Sequence record: OQ174503.1
Direction: 5' to 3' (one strand)
Length of the DNA: 64,000 nt
DNA from: Escherichia phage REP4
The notes beneath the pieces were generated by a model, which saw only the letters and a program-made list of their open reading frames with translations, did not search any database and was not told where the DNA came from. Of the stretch, positions 2,045 to 48,824 are shown one piece after another. The stretch's first letter is position 1. Each line of letters opens with the position of its first letter. A program made the translations under genes and the position numbers.

Positions 2045-3073
<1,029 letters not shown>

Positions 3074-3081
3074 ATTATCTC

Positions 3082-3417
3082 CTAATATAAAGGATCGGGA
3101 ACATATCCACTGGCTTTAATCATTTTGATTAACGTTAGCAGTCCTTTATTAACTGCTTGTGAGATTTCATTAAAAACTTCATCACTAAAAAGTTCTAACA
3201 CTCCCTTCTGAACTTTTAATTTACAACCAACAATTTCGTCATCGCCTATAGTAAATTCGTTTCCGCCAATTCCACCGAAAAACTTAATTACACCAGTTAA
3301 CTGTGTTCCACGAGAATATGGGTCGTGTGATAAAGTAATATGAGTCACCCCAGGTACAGTTTTAAATTGGCAGCGAATGTTTACTTGGGAAATTCCAGTT
3401 ACATGAATGTCAGACAT
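3082..3417 (-). CDS. Hypothetical 111-aa protein
   Basis: ORF track; ATG start with RBS GAGGAAAAT. Confidence 0.6.
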   Translation of the reverse strand: MSDIHVTGISQVNIRCQFKTVPGVTHITLSHDPYSRGTQLTGVIKFFGGIGGNEFTIGDDEIVGCKLKVQKGVLELFSDEVFNEISQAVNKGLLTLIKMIKASGYVPDPLY

Positions 3418-3427
3418 AATATTTTCC

Positions 3428-3670
3428 TCAGACAGACTTTTTCACAATTTTCCAATCAGCTTTAAACTGTTCAACGTCAGAATGATAAATCCAAAATCCT
3501 GCGCTTTCTCCATCCTCATAAAGAGGGCATCCATCACATTCATCTTCCCATCCCATATCACGTAAAAGATGTTCAGCTTTTTCAACAAGTTCAGAATCTT
3601 TACCGATGATATTAAAATACCATTTACCTCTAACTTCTGAATCTTTGATGCTCTGGCGTTGTAATCTCAT
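3428..3670 (-). CDS. Hypothetical 80-aa protein
   Basis: ORF track; preceded by early promoter 3696-3725. Confidence 0.6.
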   Translation of the reverse strand: MRLQRQSIKDSEVRGKWYFNIIGKDSELVEKAEHLLRDMGWEDECDGCPLYEDGESAGFWIYHSDVEQFKADWKIVKKSV

Positions 3671-20918: not shown

Positions 20919-21554
20919 TCACAGTTCAGATGCTACGGTGATTACTGCTTCAATGTTTTCTGCCGAGCGTTTAATGTCAAGATACACATTACCATTTTTA
21001 GCGATTTTACATGACATTCCGATATCAGTAAATTTCTGAATATGATGTTCCATCATTTTGTATCCAAAAATTCGCATATTTCCATTGTTGTTAATTTCAA
21101 AATTACGAATTCCGTGAGTGCGTTTTTCTAAAATAGCGAGATAGTTACTACGATAAGTTTCAACTTTTTTAAGAACAAATCCATTTTCATCTAAAAGTTT
21201 TAGCATGAGGTCTTTATCTTCTTCCATATCGGAAGTAATCTCACGAGCTTTACGAGTTGCTCGTTTTTTCAGTAGTTCAGGAGCATTTTCCTGCGCATAT
21301 AAAGTTGCTGCATTTGAAATAATATCCTGAGCTTCACCAGTAATGATTAATCCATCGCCAGATTTCTCCACCAGGCCTTTTTTAATCAATACACCAATAT
21401 TACTATTAACTACTGCATTACCTAAATCTGGATGCACCTCACGAACTTCTGCAGCTGTAATGAAATCTTTCTTAGCAATGGTAATTAAAATCGCAGCAGT
21501 TTTTTCATTCAGAACATCGTTAGAAGCTTTGATGATGTAAGTTACTTTAGACAT
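20919..21554 (-). CDS. motA: Middle-promoter transcription activator MotA, 211 aa
   Basis: ORF track; near-identical to T4 MotA (MSKVTYIIKASNDVLNEKTAAILITIAKKDFITAAEVREVHPDLGNAVVNSNIGVLIKKGL). Confidence 0.96.
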   Translation of the reverse strand: MSKVTYIIKASNDVLNEKTAAILITIAKKDFITAAEVREVHPDLGNAVVNSNIGVLIKKGLVEKSGDGLIITGEAQDIISNAATLYAQENAPELLKKRATRKAREITSDMEEDKDLMLKLLDENGFVLKKVETYRSNYLAILEKRTHGIRNFEINNNGNMRIFGYKMMEHHIQKFTDIGMSCKIAKNGNVYLDIKRSAENIEAVITVASEL

Positions 21555-21595
21555 TTTCTAATCTCCGTAATTCTGTATCAGTAGTTGATAGTTGT

Positions 21596-21625
21596 ATAGT
21601 ACCACAGTATGCTTTGGTTGTAAAC
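21596..21625 (-). promoter_or_regulatory. Early promoter for motA
   Basis: Minus-strand GTTTAC at 21620-21625, 18-nt spacer, TACTAT; A-rich upstream block TTTTTCACAAAACG. Confidence 0.7.
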
Positions 21626-21647
21626 CGTTTTGTGAAAAAATTTTGAA

Positions 21648-32656: not shown

Positions 32657-33076
32657 TTATTCCTTAAAGTGTGCTTTCAACATCTGATACAAGGACCATG
32701 CCTGCTCATTATTTTCAATAATAACTTTCATGACAGGAAATTCGGTGAAATCTTCTATTTGTTCTTGCTCTTCCTGCTCTTGCTCTTCAGCTGCCTGATA
32801 TGGATTTTCCACTTCATCAAAGAACCCAGCTTCACTTTTTGAAAGCCAAATAAAGTCTTCATCCAAAACATCTTTGCCAGAAGATAGTACTAAATTTCCA
32901 GTAGATGACAAAATTTTAATAGGACGCCCAAGAGCGTCCACATCTAAAATTTTAAAAGGATACATACCTAAACGTCGCGCATAAATTCCGTTATCAGTAT
33001 GGTCTTTAATAAAATTTTCTTGAGCTTGTTTATTTTTAAATTGATACCATTTATTAACTTCAAATTTAATAGCCAT
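32657..33076 (-). CDS. Hypothetical 139-aa protein with acidic [10 protein letters not shown] tract (goF position by size)
   Basis: ORF track; ATG start. Confidence 0.6.
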
Positions 33077-43141: not shown

Positions 43142-43341
43142 TTTGAATGTTCTATAATTAATTTTAAGGCTTCTTCGCTGACAAAAATTTCATCAGGACC
43201 TTCTTCTACAACCCAATCAACCACACGAAGCTGATTAGATAAGAGCTCACATACGAGCTCCTTGTCATAATTTTTAAATAGCTGGTCAATACGTTTCTTG
43301 CGGGCTTTCTTAAGCTGGCGTTTATTTAAACGAGCCATCAA
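43138..43341 (-). CDS. Hypothetical 67-aa basic protein (soc.2 position)
   Basis: ORF track; ATG overlaps gene 56 stop. Confidence 0.55.
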   Translation of the reverse strand: MMARLNKRQLKKARKKRIDQLFKNYDKELVCELLSNQLRVVDWVVEEGPDEIFVSEEALKLIIEHSK

Positions 43342-43856
43342 TAACCTCGGTCTTGACGAGCGAAGTTTTCAGCATTTTTCAGATAATAAAGTTTAAAGAT
43401 TTCTTCAGCCGTAAGACCGAGACCTTGGAACATGTTCAGAACGAAATGAAGAATATCAATCATTTCAAATTTAATTTCCAACTGGTCTTGCGGAGACAAA
43501 TCAGTAATTAGAGTTTCACGACGTTCACCATGCTGTGACTTCCAAGGTTTCCATACAGCAGATGCATCTTTTTCGCCATTGCTCATACCGCCAAGAGATG
43601 TCAGAAGTTCACGGAATTCATCGTCAATATAATCTTTCTGATTACGCAGCCAATCAACAACTTCACCAGCAGTAGCCAAATCATCAGGATGACGGTTATA
43701 TTCAGGTTTATCTTTAGCTAAACGAACCTGCAAAGATTTCTGCATATCAAGCATAACCTGCAGCGGGTCTTTTTCATCACCGAGAATATCCCAGTATTCG
43801 TTTTGAGCTTTATCAGCGCCTTCGATCAGTTGTGAACATTCATTAAAGTATGCCAT
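43338..43856 (-). CDS. 56: dCTP/dUTP pyrophosphatase gp56 (MazG-like), 172 aa
   Basis: ORF track 43338..43949 shortened to ATG at MAYFNECSQLIEG; size and position as T4 gp56; N-terminal extension in track runs through intergenic DNA. Confidence 0.85.
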   Translation of the reverse strand: MAYFNECSQLIEGADKAQNEYWDILGDEKDPLQVMLDMQKSLQVRLAKDKPEYNRHPDDLATAGEVVDWLRNQKDYIDDEFRELLTSLGGMSNGEKDASAVWKPWKSQHGERRETLITDLSPQDQLEIKFEMIDILHFVLNMFQGLGLTAEEIFKLYYLKNAENFARQDRGY

Positions 43857-43927
43857 TATTTTTCCTTTCAATTCATGGATTAGTAGATTAATTATACAAT
43901 AAATATATAAAGCAATAAGGAGGACAT

Positions 43928-44128
43928 ATGGTACAAAAATTAATGGCACTTGTTAATGCCATAAAAGGTAATAAAAAACGTATAGCTTTTACTATTTCTG
44001 CTATGATAGGAATTTTACTTTGGAATTTTGTTTTATCGCCAGTAGCTATTGCTCATGGCGTTAGTATTCCAGTAATTACTCTTGATACATTCGTAGATTT
44101 AGCATTTGCTTTAGTTGGGTTAATTTAA
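43928..44128 (+). CDS. Hypothetical 66-aa two-helix membrane protein on the opposite strand
   Basis: ORF track; strong SD AAGGAGG 4 nt before ATG; hydrophobic segments; only plus-strand ORF with a good RBS inside the minus-strand early region. Confidence 0.5.
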   Translation: MVQKLMALVNAIKGNKKRIAFTISAMIGILLWNFVLSPVAIAHGVSIPVITLDTFVDLAFALVGLI

Positions 44129-45153
44129 ATCTTAGCATATTTAGATAGCCGCATTTTAGCCATCAGCCCTTGAGCAATATTATTTTTCATATATTCCATA
44201 ATTTGTTCAGGGGTTGCACCTTCCTTTCTAATCATATCATTAACATCTTTTGATTTCCAGGGAGATTTATCCCAAAACATAACCCTTTCTCCTGCATCAA
44301 CCAATTTAGTCATTCGTTTAATAGTGTCAGGATGACGAGGTTCATTATCTAAAACCCATACACGTCTATCTTTAAATGGAACAATTTCTAGGTCTAATTG
44401 ACCACCTGTAATAGCTATACCATTTTCAATAAAAAGTGAATCTATAGGTCCTTCTAGAACATATACATCACCATCTTTAACCCGTTCAACACCATAGATT
44501 TTTGTTGCCTCAGGATAAGCTTTGATGGTGATATATTTTTGAGGAGCATCTTTCTTTAATGCGCGTCCTTGAAAAGACTCAGCTTTTCCATTAGCATTAT
44601 AAATTGGAATAACAAGACGAGGCTCAGATATTTCCTTTTTATATGTTCCTGGTGCTATACTATTAACTAATTTAGGCCATTCAGTTGTAAACCAAAGATA
44701 TTTCCATTTATCCTTTGGAATACAGCGAGCTTTTACGTATTTTATAATTGGATGGTCTTCCGCCAGTTTATCTAATCTAATGCATGACGGAAGAGATTTA
44801 ATTATTTTCTTCTCAGGTTGTTTAGGAAGTTCTTTAGGTTTTTCTACTGGACGACTTTTACCTTTTTCTTTTCTTATTTCAAAGATATACTCACGATATA
44901 AATCAGGTTCAAACTCCTTTAAATATATTCCGATTGGTGCATGATAGTTACAGTTATAGCAATGAATATTTCCTTCATTATTATCACCATAATACCATCC
45001 ACGGGCTTTATTTTGGTCGGTTTTTGAATCTCCACAAACAGGGCATCTAAACCGTAATTTAAAAGTTGAACTATTATTTACTTGTGTGAATTTAGGTAAA
45101 TGAGCTAATGCACGGTATGCAAACTCATTATCAATCCAAGGTATTGATGGCAT
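44125..45153 (-). CDS. 61: DNA primase gp61, 342 aa
   Basis: ORF track; near-identical to T4 gp61 (zinc ribbon CPVCGDSKTDQNKARGWYYGDNNEGNIHCYNCNYH, TOPRIM core). Confidence 0.96.
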   Translation of the reverse strand: MPSIPWIDNEFAYRALAHLPKFTQVNNSSTFKLRFRCPVCGDSKTDQNKARGWYYGDNNEGNIHCYNCNYHAPIGIYLKEFEPDLYREYIFEIRKEKGKSRPVEKPKELPKQPEKKIIKSLPSCIRLDKLAEDHPIIKYVKARCIPKDKWKYLWFTTEWPKLVNSIAPGTYKKEISEPRLVIPIYNANGKAESFQGRALKKDAPQKYITIKAYPEATKIYGVERVKDGDVYVLEGPIDSLFIENGIAITGGQLDLEIVPFKDRRVWVLDNEPRHPDTIKRMTKLVDAGERVMFWDKSPWKSKDVNDMIRKEGATPEQIMEYMKNNIAQGLMAKMRLSKYAKI

Positions 45154-45155
45154 TT

Positions 45156-45320
45156 TTACTCTTCTTTTTCTTTAGATTCCTCTTTTTTCTTTTTAGGAAT
45201 CTGTTCAGGACCTTTATTTACTACAGCGCCTGACGTTGTTCCAGTAGAGATATTTTCAGGATTACCACCTGAATCGCCAGCTACCATATCTTCTTTAATA
45301 AATTCTTTATATGTTTTCAT
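45156..45320 (-). CDS. 61.1: Hypothetical 54-aa Gly/Lys/Glu-rich protein (not in ORF track)
   Basis: Manual translation MKTYKEFIKEDMVAGDSGGNPENISTGTTSGAVVNKGPEQIPKKKKEESKEKEE; position and size of T4 61.1. Confidence 0.5.
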   Translation of the reverse strand: MKTYKEFIKEDMVAGDSGGNPENISTGTTSGAVVNKGPEQIPKKKKEESKEKEE

Positions 45321-45321
45321 A

Positions 45322-45948
45322 TTAACCTCTATTCATAAAAGCATTAAAAATTTGGTCATCAATAGAAACATTCACTTTAGACTGTTTTTCTGATGGTAAT
45401 TCATATCCACATATTACAATTTTATGATCAATATCAAAATACACAGAAGCAATATGATTAATGATGTTTTCAGTAAAGTCTAAATCAACATCAATATCTT
45501 TTTGACCACAGCCCAAAGGATAAATAATGCGAGTAATTCGATTATCTTTAACAAAGATTCCACCGATATACTCTGTGCTGCGTTCAAAGTCTACACGCCG
45601 ACGAAATGAAAAATATTCAGGCTCTTTATGAGCTCGGCTCATAGGACACAACGAGTAACTAGAATAAGAGATGTCAAATCCTACGCCTTCAATATGAGCC
45701 AAATTATCATGATTAAACCAATTATAATCGTACGCCAAGTCCATTAGATTATAATATGTGAAAGGCACCGGATTAACATCATTAGTCACAAGCATGTAAT
45801 TAGCAACTGCTATAATTTCATTATTTTTAACGAATACAAACCGTGATTGATGTGAATGACCTGGACCTGCGTTTTCACGATTAATGATATAACACTGGGC
45901 ACCTTTATATTTGTACGTGTCTTTGCACTTGTGCATTTGATAAAGCAT
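45322..45948 (-). CDS. Hypothetical 208-aa protein at the T4 61.2 position (the gene reported as anti-DarT factor AdfA in T4)
   Basis: ORF track; position between 61.1 and sp and length match T4 61.2; assignment is by synteny and size only. Confidence 0.6.
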   Translation of the reverse strand: MLYQMHKCKDTYKYKGAQCYIINRENAGPGHSHQSRFVFVKNNEIIAVANYMLVTNDVNPVPFTYYNLMDLAYDYNWFNHDNLAHIEGVGFDISYSSYSLCPMSRAHKEPEYFSFRRRVDFERSTEYIGGIFVKDNRITRIIYPLGCGQKDIDVDLDFTENIINHIASVYFDIDHKIVICGYELPSEKQSKVNVSIDDQIFNAFMNRG

Positions 45949-46241
45949 TATTCACCTACCACTTCAGCGATGATATTTTTATTATTGAAGTTTTTATCAC
46001 AATACAGAACGTAATTATACTGCATTACACCACCAGACTTAAGCTGTTTTTGTACTTCAGCTTTCATTTCAGGGCGATCACGCTCAACGATATTCATAAT
46101 ATCCGCTTCAATTTGAGTTTCAACTTCAGTCTGATCTGCAGTCATAGACCATTCACACAAATCTTTGTCATAACCCGCCATAGCAGGCTGAGCAGCGCAA
46201 GAAGATAAAGCAAAAATTGCAGCAAAGATAAATTTTTTCAT
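45948..46241 (-). CDS. sp: Spackle periplasmic protein (superinfection exclusion; inhibitor of gp5 lysozyme), 97 aa
   Basis: ORF track; 22-aa signal peptide MKKFIFAAIFALSSCAAQPAMA then 75-aa mature part with two Cys; size and position of T4 sp (61.3). Confidence 0.85.
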   Translation of the reverse strand: MKKFIFAAIFALSSCAAQPAMAGYDKDLCEWSMTADQTEVETQIEADIMNIVERDRPEMKAEVQKQLKSGGVMQYNYVLYCDKNFNNKNIIAEVVGE

Positions 46242-46269
46242 GATAATCTCCTCAGTAGTTTATGTTTAT

Positions 46270-46299
46270 ATAGTATCTCAATTTTCAACAAAAGTAAAC
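46270..46299 (-). promoter_or_regulatory. Early promoter for sp (GTTTAC, 18 nt, TACTAT)
   Basis: Minus-strand GTTTAC at 46294-46299. Confidence 0.6.
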
Positions 46300-46346
46300 A
46301 CTAGTAGAAGCAAACAGACAAATTGCAATAATTGGTGATTTCAGTT

Positions 46347-46541
46347 TCATTCTTCTCCTCCTTCATGTTGATGAACATATTCTTTTTCAAGTCTAGAGCA
46401 CAAGTTTTCATATTCAACTAATAAAAGTGAATCAAGTGCGTTATTTCTATGCTGACACCGTTCTTGTAAAGAATCCATCTCTGAACGTTGTTCTTGTGTT
46501 AATAATTGATAACCTGATACTTTAGACATTTTGTTCTCCAT
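46347..46541 (-). CDS. Hypothetical 64-aa acidic helical protein
   Basis: ORF track; ATG; no counterpart I can place in the T4 61-41 interval. Confidence 0.55.
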   Translation of the reverse strand: MENKMSKVSGYQLLTQEQRSEMDSLQERCQHRNNALDSLLLVEYENLCSRLEKEYVHQHEGGEE

Positions 46542-46593
46542 TTACTCGTTTGTTTTGATAGGTCTATAATAACATGTTTAAAACAAAAGTAAA

Positions 46594-46848
46594 CTATTTT
46601 ATTTCCTCAAGTTCGTTAATCAATAAAAGTTCTCTGACGCTAAAAACAAAGAAAAATGTGTTCCCATCAACCAGAGCATGACCGCTAATAGAACACCCTC
46701 TGCGGAATTTAGAAACTTCACAATCTAGAACTGTAAAAGGTTTTAATCCTATGACTTTAGCTGTGCGTCTATTCAGTTCACAACCACTCGCGAATTTTTC
46801 CAAATCTTCTTCTGATTTAAACTGATATTCTCTATTAACTAGCATCAT
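46594..46848 (-). CDS. Hypothetical 84-aa protein with three Cys
   Basis: ORF track; preceded by its own early promoter. Confidence 0.55.
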   Translation of the reverse strand: MMLVNREYQFKSEEDLEKFASGCELNRRTAKVIGLKPFTVLDCEVSKFRRGCSISGHALVDGNTFFFVFSVRELLLINELEEIK

Positions 46849-46879
46849 TTTCTTTTCTCCGCGATTAGCTGATAGAATT

Positions 46880-46909
46880 ACTATAACACAACTCTATCAG
46901 CTTGTAAAC
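46880..46909 (-). promoter_or_regulatory. Early promoter (GTTTAC, 18 nt, TATAGT)
   Basis: Minus-strand GTTTAC at 46904-46909. Confidence 0.65.
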
Positions 46910-46911
46910 TA

Positions 46912-47154
46912 CTATTTTACTAGCATCAATAGCTGTTTCTCTAACTTGACGATTTTACGAAAGTATCTTTTGCATTGGCGAATCTGTCGCTTCGTAGGGC
47001 GCACAGCAAACTTAATAAATTCCACTCGACCAAATGGAGGGCTTTCTTCTGCTGGAATATCTAACACCAATTCCCACGTATCTGCAACAAGTGCTTTGAA
47101 TTGAGTATTTTTCCTGACATTATATGGAGTAGGTTTAAATAAAACAATATGCAT
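46912..47154 (-). CDS. Hypothetical 80-aa basic protein at the T4 61.4 position (the gene reported as toxIN inhibitor TifA in T4)
   Basis: ORF track 46912..47196 shortened to ATG at MHIVLFKPTPY with RBS GAGGATAAT; Lys/Arg-rich C-terminus; assignment by position only. Confidence 0.5.
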   Translation of the reverse strand: MHIVLFKPTPYNVRKNTQFKALVADTWELVLDIPAEESPPFGRVEFIKFAVRPTKRQIRQCKRYFRKIVKLEKQLLMLVK

Positions 47155-47155
47155 A

Positions 47156-47338
47156 TTATCCTCGGCAATCCACTTCACATACTTTCTTGTCATCAATGAA
47201 AGCTTTAACTAATGCTTTATTAACTTCAGCATATTGAGTAGTAGCCCATTGAACGTCATCTTTCATCATTGTGATTTCTTTAGTAAACATGCTTTCATTC
47301 TTAAACCACCCCATAAAAACTACCTTTACCAATTCCAT
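47156..47338 (-). CDS. dmd: Dmd-like antitoxin (inhibitor of RnlA/LsoA toxins), 60 aa
   Basis: ORF track; 60 aa, directly downstream of helicase 41 with its own early promoter, as T4 dmd (61.5). Confidence 0.6.
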   Translation of the reverse strand: MELVKVVFMGWFKNESMFTKEITMMKDDVQWATTQYAEVNKALVKAFIDDKKVCEVDCRG

Positions 47339-47367
47339 AACAATCTCCTCATTTAACCAACAAGACT

Positions 47368-47397
47368 ACTATACCATAGTCTTGTCGGCTTGTAAAC
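47368..47397 (-). promoter_or_regulatory. Early promoter for dmd (GTTTAC, 18 nt, TATAGT)
   Basis: Minus-strand GTTTAC at 47392-47397. Confidence 0.65.
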
Positions 47398-48824
47398 TAA
47401 AATTTTAATTCATTTGCCAAAGCATCTAACTGAGCTCGAGCGGATTCGTTTCTTTGATAGCGGTTCTGTTCAGCTTGTATCTGTTGTGAACCTGCTACTT
47501 CGTTCACTTCAGTTGGAGTAGAATCTTGTTCAATTTCTACCCATTTCTGATTTCCTTTTTGAACACCCATCAAAAACTTATTCCATTTATTCTTATCACC
47601 ATATCGTGATTTGATTTGCTTAATGAGTTGCTGTTCAGCCGCTGCTAACTCCTCGGTTTCAATGACCGCAAGCATAAAATCGGCTGTTGCTGGAAGACCG
47701 GCAGATTCTGCAATATCGCTCATGTTAACATCAGAAGAATCCCAAGCTTGCTTACCAACCTGTGCTGCAGTCCAAAGAACAGTTTCGGTTTCAACAGCCA
47801 GAGCACGCAATTCCTCTGCAATAGCTTTAACAGTTGTATAACTATTTTCTGAATAAACTCTGATGCGGCAAGATTTACAAATACCTAGATAGTCAACAAT
47901 AATGATTGTTGGAACAAAATTCTTCTTGAGCTTTAATTCGTTTAAAAGAGAACGAAATGTATTAGCGTCTGCTCCACCAGTAGGATACTGTTTAACGATT
48001 AAACGACCGAGAGTAGATTTCTCACGCCATTTTTCCATTTTTCCTTTATACTCAGCATAAGAAATATGCCCATCATCAATGTCATCAAGAGAAACATCGA
48101 GCATATTAGCGTCAATACGTTTAGCACAGACTTCTTCTGCCATTTCCATGGAAATGTAAAGAACATTATGACCGAGCTGTAAATAATCTGCTGCCAATGA
48201 ACATAGACCTAATGACTTACCAACGTTAACACCAGCCATTAAAACGTTCAGTGTTCCAGTCTCAGCTCCGCCTTTAGTAATTTTATTTAGAATTTTGAGT
48301 TTAAATGGAACCTTACGAGCTTTATTCATATAAGATAGCCAACGTGCTTCGTAGTCATCCATCCAATCATGGCCAACATAGCTATCAAATGAAATTGATA
48401 ATGCTTGACGCATGATGTCAGGAATAGCACCAACATCCGGCATTTTCTTATTTCGTTTTTCCGGAGGAAGTTCAGCATTAGTTTGAATTTCAATTATTTT
48501 AGACGTAGCATTAAACATCGCCCTTTGCTGAACATATTTTTCCGTTTCTTTTACTAACCAGCTGTGGTCTTCCGGAGAATCGGTTAGTTTTGAAATAAGT
48601 GTTTTTACACCAGAATATTCTGTTTCAGTAAATGAACTATTTTCTAATGCAACATTTAACGCATTAATAGATGGAACGCTATGGTACTCATTAACATGAG
48701 ATTTAATTAATTTGAATGTATTTTTAGCTGGACCACTTTCAAAATATTCTGAATCCATATATGGCCAAACTTTTGAAAAATAAGCTTGATCAAATATGAG
48801 ATGAGAAAGAATAATTTCTACCAC
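47397..48824 (-). CDS. 41: Replicative DNA helicase gp41 (DnaB family), 475 aa; apparent GTG start
   Basis: ORF track; near-identical to T4 gp41; first codon GTG with AAGGAG RBS 5 nt upstream. Confidence 0.95.
   Translation of the reverse strand: MVEIILSHLIFDQAYFSKVWPYMDSEYFESGPAKNTFKLIKSHVNEYHSVPSINALNVALENSSFTETEYSGVKTLISKLTDSPEDHSWLVKETEKYVQQRAMFNATSKIIEIQTNAELPPEKRNKKMPDVGAIPDIMRQALSISFDSYVGHDWMDDYEARWLSYMNKARKVPFKLKILNKITKGGAETGTLNVLMAGVNVGKSLGLCSLAADYLQLGHNVLYISMEMAEEVCAKRIDANMLDVSLDDIDDGHISYAEYKGKMEKWREKSTLGRLIVKQYPTGGADANTFRSLLNELKLKKNFVPTIIIVDYLGICKSCRIRVYSENSYTTVKAIAEELRALAVETETVLWTAAQVGKQAWDSSDVNMSDIAESAGLPATADFMLAVIETEELAAAEQQLIKQIKSRYGDKNKWNKFLMGVQKGNQKWVEIEQDSTPTEVNEVAGSQQIQAEQNRYQRNESARAQLDALANELKF

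Follow-up and report, generated by a model that had tools for sequence, protein, structure and literature searches.

Two small genes in separate cassettes with predicted early promoters between tifA and sp in the gene 41–61 locus of the T4-like Escherichia phage REP4

The stretch analyzed here, 64,000 nucleotides (nt) of Escherichia phage REP4 (OQ174503.1; hereafter the window), carries two accessory open reading frames (ORFs), ORF84 and ORF60, in the interval between the genes for primase (61; 44125–45153) and helicase (41; 47397–48824). A 2.5-kb query around this interval matched 567 phage records, the best being Escherichia virus KFS-EC3 (97% identity over the full length), and by sequence the carrier is a T4-like phage of the Tequatrovirus group. 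Seven minus-strand ORFs lie between the two genes, the number given in an earlier sequence-only reading of this DNA, which had also named five of them by position and size. These names are borne out by Pfam matches and by 87–100% identity to T4. The five genes, all on the minus strand, are 61.1 (45156–45320; 54 amino acids (aa); 96% identical to T4 gp61.1; phrog_1823, no Pfam family), 61.2 or adfA, encoding anti-DarT factor A (45322–45948; 208 aa; PF23813 AdfA, E 1.9e-135; 97% identical to T4), sp, encoding Spackle (45948–46241; 97 aa; PF25676 T4_Spackle, E 2.8e-45; 97% identical), 61.4 or tifA, encoding a ToxN inhibitor (46912–47154; DUF7279, E 5e-20), and dmd, encoding the antitoxin against RnlA/LsoA (47156–47338; 60 aa; PF17587 Dmd, E 1.6e-46; 100% identical). 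The tifA gene starts at the ATG at 47154, giving 80 aa, and not at the TTG that yields a 94-aa ORF; its product is a variant with an altered C-terminal tail, identical to T4 TifA at 74 of 85 aligned positions (87%), with the differences confined to the tail.

The T4 record contains exactly five genes in this interval, as the sequence-only reading had stated, and only 60 nt separate sp from 61.4. Therefore, the two further ORFs are, by sequence comparison, real insertions relative to T4; both are also lacking in T2 and T6, as judged from interval length. The locus is known for published counter-defense genes, which the earlier reading likewise pointed out. TifA is the product of 61.4 and is expressed with dmd from an early promoter (PMC9391042), TifA and Dmd each bind and neutralize host RNase toxins (PMC9391042, PMC10853763), and AdfA corresponds to 61.2 (PMC11257639; PF23813).

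ORF84 (46594–46848, minus strand) encodes an 84-aa protein predicted to be a stand-alone SH3/LSm-like beta-barrel resembling the N-terminal domain of the T4 early protein GoF (ComC-alpha). It matches the PHROG family phrog_2980, named 'goF' (E 3.2e-20), and residues 7–47 of T4 GoF at 37% identity (BLASTP, E 2e-8). The alignment to GoF extends from residue 1 to about residue 93 of that protein and covers the N-terminal domain alone. A profile of ORF84 homologs retrieved GoF proteins at E about 1e-31, a value that is not independent, as the GoF proteins of T4 and of the window were part of the query. The AlphaFold2 model (predicted local distance difference test score, pLDDT, 80) starts with one strand, followed by two helices, and ends in four strands, forming a predicted bent five-stranded antiparallel beta-sheet of the SH3/LSm-like barrel type; the GoF fold was itself termed LSm-like by Kim et al. 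2025 (PMC12152347). In a Foldseek search of viral models, ORF84 finds T4 MotB.1 (P39415, E 2.8e-4), together with numerous T4-like proteins that have an N-terminal copy of the domain. GoF belongs to the GoF/Frd.2/MotB.1 fold family of Tevenvirinae, and the modeled barrel has FeoA and IdeR as structural neighbors, the ones reported for GoF.

The two-domain architecture of GoF is not reproduced: ORF84 stops at the end of the N-terminal domain, without linker or C-terminal domain, and is 84 aa long, compared with 141 aa for GoF. A full-length goF is also kept in the window (32660–33076), and its product is the sole paralog of ORF84 among the window proteins. Because the window retains this gene, ORF84 represents an additional copy, and on sequence and model grounds we describe it as a domain-only paralog of the GoF N-terminal barrel. 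The possibility of a true GoF orthology was ruled out, given that only the domain is present and that the phage keeps its full goF. The label 'goF mRNA metabolism modulator', often attached to ORF84 in GenBank, thus overstates the kinship; 'GoF N-terminal-domain-like protein' is a better description. Further differences from GoF lie in location, with goF found next to gene 39 and ORF84 residing as an extra copy in the 41–61 locus, and in a set of Cys and His residues. Positions C23, C43, C52 and H57 are conserved in four of four diverged ORF84 homologs and lacking in GoF, and the homolog from phage SP18 gives a below-threshold match to zf-CGNR (E 0.002). This Cys/His cluster may bind metal or form a disulfide.

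The protein is mildly acidic, with an isoelectric point (pI) of 5.8. Among homologs at 57–81% aa identity the proportion of differing synonymous sites (pS) is saturated at 0.72–0.79, and the nonsynonymous counterpart (pN) is about 0.13; the ratio of the corresponding substitution rates (dN/dS) is 0.06–0.17 where computable. Since pN is low against saturated synonymous sites, sequence comparison argues that ORF84 is a genuine gene under strong purifying selection.

Every ORF84 homolog whose locus was inspected falls in the 41–61 locus, with a variable gene order. In SP18 the order is 41, ORF84 homolog, two ORFs, dmd and sp; in two uncultured T4-like contigs it is 41, a 253-aa ORF, ORF84 homolog, a TifA-like (DUF7279) gene and Spackle. 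The 253-aa ORF (2679–3440 in both contig stretches) has no Pfam match and is another variable occupant of the locus; dmd was not called in those two contigs.

ORF60 (46347–46529, minus strand) encodes a 60-aa acidic, predicted helical protein. The sequence-only reading had listed a 64-aa ORF at 46347–46541; the ORF itself is genuine, and its start is most likely the second ATG. This start is preferred because GGAG lies 6 nt upstream of it, the PHROG profile has 60 positions, GenBank annotators call the gene as 183 bp, and the ATG of a motA leader described below aligns with it; the 64-aa start was set aside. The match to phrog_37915 (E 1.7e-44) spans profile positions 1–60 of 60 and covers residues 5–64 of the 64-aa version. 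An exhaustive HMMER search of 1.84 billion representative proteins yielded nine relatives at 47–69% identity. Ten aligned relatives each match phrog_37915 and no other PHROG, and share the motif GYxLLTxEQRxEMDxLxERxTH...LDAxxLxEYExLCxRLExEY. In the family alignment, which includes homologs at 44–59% identity, 15 columns are invariant, and pS is at least 0.78, compared with a pN of 0.26–0.38, so ORF60 too appears from its sequence to be a genuine gene under purifying selection.

The ORF60 protein has a pI of 4.9 and a net charge of -6. Its single-sequence AlphaFold2 model consists of one long helix (residues 12–56, pLDDT 88). Relatives hold up to four additional residues in the middle of the protein, which suggests a helical hairpin instead of a single rod. 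Their genes come from phage-like contigs that are unrelated and for the most part lack annotation; those examined, an IMG/VR locus and two metagenomic contigs, give no functional hint. The family phrog_37915 is a small, patchily distributed phage family. No ORF60 paralog was found among the window proteins. For both ORF84 and ORF60, Pfam, NCBIfam, PADLOC and PDB sequences (the latter searched with family profiles) gave no usable match, and a word-indexed search of 5.8 billion proteins returned near-identical clusters only; for ORF84, a profile search was needed to reach remote homologs.

The beginning of ORF60 has a separate origin. Window positions 46519–46600, comprising the promoter, leader and first codons, are 80–87% identical to the segment that leads into and includes the motA start, a match found in hundreds of records, the majority from Mosigvirus phages. 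In a three-way alignment the ORF60 leader is near-identical to that of JS09 motA from the -35 box through ATG TCT AAA GT, and the window's own Tequatrovirus motA leader (21545–21640) is much less similar. The identity to motA of Mosigvirus (RB69/JS09-like) phages amounts to about 86% over some 82 nt, from the -35 box to the first codons (MSKV); past codon 4–5, however, the ORF60 coding sequence is unrelated to MotA. By this comparison the promoter, leader and first codons of ORF60 are borrowed from Mosigvirus motA, an apparent case of regulatory DNA crossing from one genus to another. ORF60 starts with MSKV as MotA does, and its relatives natively possess K-V/L-S/T-G-Y at this place; the probable joining point is therefore the pair of codons for Lys and Val that both have in common.

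Early-promoter-like sites precede dmd, ORF84, ORF60 and sp, all on the minus strand. The promoter scan (threshold of 9 out of 12 consensus positions) identified TTTACA-N17-TATAGT upstream of dmd and tifA (47396–47368), the same consensus match upstream of ORF84 (46908–46880) and TTTACT-N16-TATTAT upstream of ORF60 (46593–46566), the last one within the motA-derived leader. The sp site, TTTACT-N17-TACTAT (46270–46298), is below the scan threshold and was read from an alignment in which T4, Shfl2, KFS-EC3 and the window all retain the segment. An early promoter at 46880–46909 had been proposed in the sequence-only reading to drive both extra ORFs. The site is present, but it precedes ORF84 only; ORF60 has its own. 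An early-type promoter is a feature that ORF84 has in common with GoF.

The ORF84 leader forms a cassette (46867–46908) of the promoter-early stem-loop (PeSL) type, with a predicted 14-bp stem-loop that spans the spacer and -10 box (inverted repeat arms 46867–46879 and 46890–46902); the dmd leader contains a 15-bp stem-loop. Predicted folding energies are -18 kcal/mol (z -3.6) for the ORF84 leader and -21.8 kcal/mol (z -5.25) for that of dmd, and the stem-loops of the other leaders are not significant (ORF60 z -0.96, sp z +1.0). The leader of dmd is homologous to that of ORF84: TAGTTTACAAGC occurs in each, followed by the stem-loop across the spacer and -10 box. Compensatory changes are seen as well, with both partners substituted in six stem pairs among four distinct sequences. 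A scan of 44900–47600 against Rfam gave no match at E up to 1, and no intrinsic terminators were found in the scanned region.

Alignments, read in the direction of transcription, reveal how the cassettes are joined. In T4, the tifA stop codon runs directly into CTGTTTACTTTTGTTGG, which is the sp promoter's -35 region. In Shfl2 the stop codon of ORF84 overlaps the same GTTTAC of the sp -35 region. In the window this -35 motif is interrupted by the ORF60 cassette, so that GTTTACTTTTGTT is found on both flanks, at 46582–46594 and 46287–46299. The two copies are the cores of an 18-nt direct repeat (repeat family D3, minus strand; 89% identical, spacing 295 nt), the left copy of which (46577–46594) overlaps the ORF84 stop codon and the right copy of which (46282–46299) marks the junction visible in the Shfl2 alignment. 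The 13-nt repeat was considered as a target-site duplication and rejected, being the -35 region common to two promoters. SA20RB lacks ORF84, and there the junction falls within GGAGAA, a Shine-Dalgarno sequence common to the ORF84 and ORF60 leaders. The cassette junctions thus lie in shared -35 or Shine-Dalgarno motifs.

These features resemble the PeSL cassettes of T-even phages (Arbiol et al. 2010, PMC2839356; Comeau et al. 2014, PMC4122927). The T-even PeSL consensus is TTTACW-N17-TAYWAT (PMC4122927), an early-promoter consensus also seen at ORF84, ORF60 and dmd, and crossovers between Shine-Dalgarno and -10 boxes are documented (PMC2839356). Likewise, ORF84 and dmd each have a predicted stem-loop spanning the spacer and -10 box, the orphan genes next to the cassettes vary from one close relative to another, and crossovers fall in -35 and Shine-Dalgarno motifs. 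The ORF60 leader differs in having no significant stem-loop. PeSL cassettes are further characterized by excised mini-circle intermediates in infected cells. No description of the ORF84 or ORF60 cassettes was found in the accessible portions of the two papers.

The distribution of the two genes across phages was surveyed by tblastn and by a census of presence states. At an identity of at least 95%, ORF84 is present in some 70 phage records, among them RB3, RB6, RB7, RB10, Shfl2, ime09 and PP01, and its homologs at 57% identity are found in SP18-like Gaprivervirus phages; ORF60 occurs in 20 GenBank records. The sequence-only reading had called these new genes, a description that the record counts do not support, and a literature search found no study of either one. 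The census used 60 records, an evenly spaced sample of the 514 matching the sp–tifA interval. Two of them (APCEc01 and EP02SG) turned out to be cross-matches to motA at another locus, leaving 58. About 49 possess neither ORF and have an interval of T4 length (e.g., T2 and T6), six possess ORF84 only (e.g., RB3 and vB_EcoM-G28), one possesses ORF60 only (SA20RB) and two possess both (IME339 and SH-1). Additional carriers of both ORFs are the window, KFS-EC3, ime09 and GEP001; Shfl2 has ORF84 alone. Presence among records is about 4–14%, with ORF84 in about 14% of Tequatrovirus records. All four presence/absence states occur, and therefore ORF84 and ORF60 are two independent cassettes. The earlier view of the two ORFs as a unit under one promoter fails on Shfl2 and on SA20RB, whose gene order is 61, 61.1, sp, ORF60, tifA, dmd and 41.

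We consider it fairly probable that the tifA–sp interval holds two independent PeSL-type accessory-gene cassettes, shuffled via shared motifs and encoding early partner-binding proteins. The cassettes would be gained and lost through recombination at short near-identical motifs, namely a -35 box, GTTTAC, and a ribosome-binding site, GGAGAA, and such motifs precede every gene of the locus. Both proteins would be made in the first minutes of infection. As both are tiny and have no catalytic motifs, they would act through binding a partner. For ORF84 the most likely partner would be RNA or an RNA-handling protein, with phage mRNA being modulated or protected, because the GoF(D25Y) mutant stabilizes RNA carrying the gene-41 5′ untranslated region (PMC12152347) and the neighboring Dmd and TifA neutralize host RNases. 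For ORF60 a host protein would be the most likely partner. In short, sequence features suggest that ORF84 and ORF60 are small, selected and probably early-expressed binding proteins delivered via cassette exchange. Even if neither has an immune role, the interval offers a nucleotide-resolution example of small-gene swapping in T-even phages via promoter and ribosome-binding motifs, including a gene start taken from motA of another genus.

Several observations weigh against parts of this interpretation. Early expression of both ORFs is predicted from consensus promoter matches, and promoter-like matches in the region are not more numerous than in shuffled sequence (12 versus 9.6 ± 2.8); the calls are consensus matches weighed by position and homology, not by number. 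The ORF60 leader, having no significant stem-loop, would be a promoter cassette and not a full PeSL, and the one-helix model of its product was built from a single sequence, with the four extra mid-protein residues of longer homologs suggesting a hairpin. In addition, wild-type GoF and MotB.1 do not stabilize the gene-41 leader RNA and had no clear effect on the reporter RNA, the D25Y mutant alone being active (PMC12152347), so RNA binding by the GoF fold family is unproven. At the position aligned with GoF D25, ORF84 possesses Gly.

What the two proteins do for the phage can be read in different ways. They may act in host takeover or modulate gene expression without any immune target, ORF84 tuning mRNA stability or translation in a GoF-like manner and ORF60 binding a host housekeeping factor; we regard this as possible, though short of an even chance. 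Many small T4 early proteins bind host housekeeping factors. Membership of ORF84 in the GoF/MotB.1/Frd.2 family by sequence and fold is in keeping with such a role, as is the leader that ORF60 shares with motA, an early transcription regulator. GoF itself is made early and in abundance, is non-essential and has been connected with the level of gene-41 mRNA (PMC12152347). However, both genes are lacking in about 85% of Tequatrovirus records, so that a takeover role would be dispensable and a host-specific benefit is likely.

A similar weight is given to the proposal that one or both ORFs inhibit a bacterial anti-phage system, for example a toxin–antitoxin module or another RNase of the abortive infection type, as part of a larger AdfA/TifA/Dmd island; we hold it tentatively. 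Position alone makes an anti-defense role of ORF84 and ORF60 plausible. The ORFs adjoin tifA, dmd and adfA, and the ORF84 homologs at 57–81% identity lie beside DUF7279/TifA-like, Spackle or dmd genes in other T4-like lineages, including SP18 and the two uncultured contigs. Presence varies among near-identical phages, as expected of host-specific genes, and O157:H7 or Shigella served as the isolation host for many carriers. Like Dmd, TifA and AdfA, both proteins are encoded in this locus by genes with early-type signals that vary among relatives, and are of similar size. The resemblance does not extend to sequence or family: a Pfam search including the AdfA, Dmd and Spackle models revealed no homology to a characterized inhibitor, nor did NCBIfam, PADLOC or PDB entries, and TifA is very basic (pI 10.3), in contrast to the two acidic proteins. 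Residence in a single locus can also be explained by exchange through conserved flanks, and the locus contains genes that are not inhibitors, such as sp, which acts in superinfection exclusion, and 61.1, which has no known role. Furthermore, GoF, the only studied relative, is linked to mRNA stability and has no known immune target (PMC12152347).

We speculate, with considerable reserve, that at least one cassette encodes a previously unrecognized immune inhibitor, and specifically that ORF84, as a Cys3-His barrel, neutralizes a host effector of the RNase type, from an abortive-infection or toxin–antitoxin system, or shields phage mRNA from it. If so, the 41–61 locus would be a compact, modular site of counter-defense cassette exchange, and T4, which has neither gene, would be a ready test chassis. 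The GoF-type barrel family has stayed unexplained since goF mutants were isolated, and ORF84 would then give the GoF/MotB.1/Frd.2 fold family its first physiological role. ORF84 and ORF60 are reasonable candidates for wet-lab screening and not a discovery.

It is improbable that the ORFs are non-genes, or passengers of little or no benefit spread by readily recombining promoter cassettes, as their patchy distribution, their position between recombinogenic repeats and their lack of known function might suggest, because both are under strong purifying selection; in addition, reading frames, Shine-Dalgarno sequences and promoter-like sites are intact in all carriers inspected, the Cys/His pattern is conserved in ORF84, and ORF60 has relatives in unrelated phage contigs.

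Several neighboring genes differ between the window and its relatives. The 80-aa TifA of the window ends with ...EKQLLMLVK and the 85-aa T4 TifA with ...EKQFVTCDYAEILK; the 3′ end of tifA lies at 46912–46940. The T4-type tail is retained in KFS-EC3, although both cassettes are present there. The variant tail and the first codons of ORF84 have TGATGCTAGT in common (repeat D1), which may be a recombination scar or chance.

The methyltransferase gene dam, which in T4 sits between genes 56 and 61, is absent here. A tblastn search of the whole window with T4 Dam returned zero matches, and at the corresponding place (43338–44128) a 66-aa hydrophobic ORF is found on the plus strand (43928–44128); it is annotated in Shfl2 and KFS-EC3 as well. 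Some relatives also carry a 118-aa ORF between 61.1 and 61.2, ORF33c (Shfl2p038; 1823–2179 in the Shfl2 stretch), which is absent from the window. Its product is paralogous to AdfA, over the C-terminal half of that protein (match to PF23813 at E 1.9e-8, covering profile positions 113–211). The ORF takes the place of adfA in ime09 and lies beside adfA in Shfl2 and GEP001.

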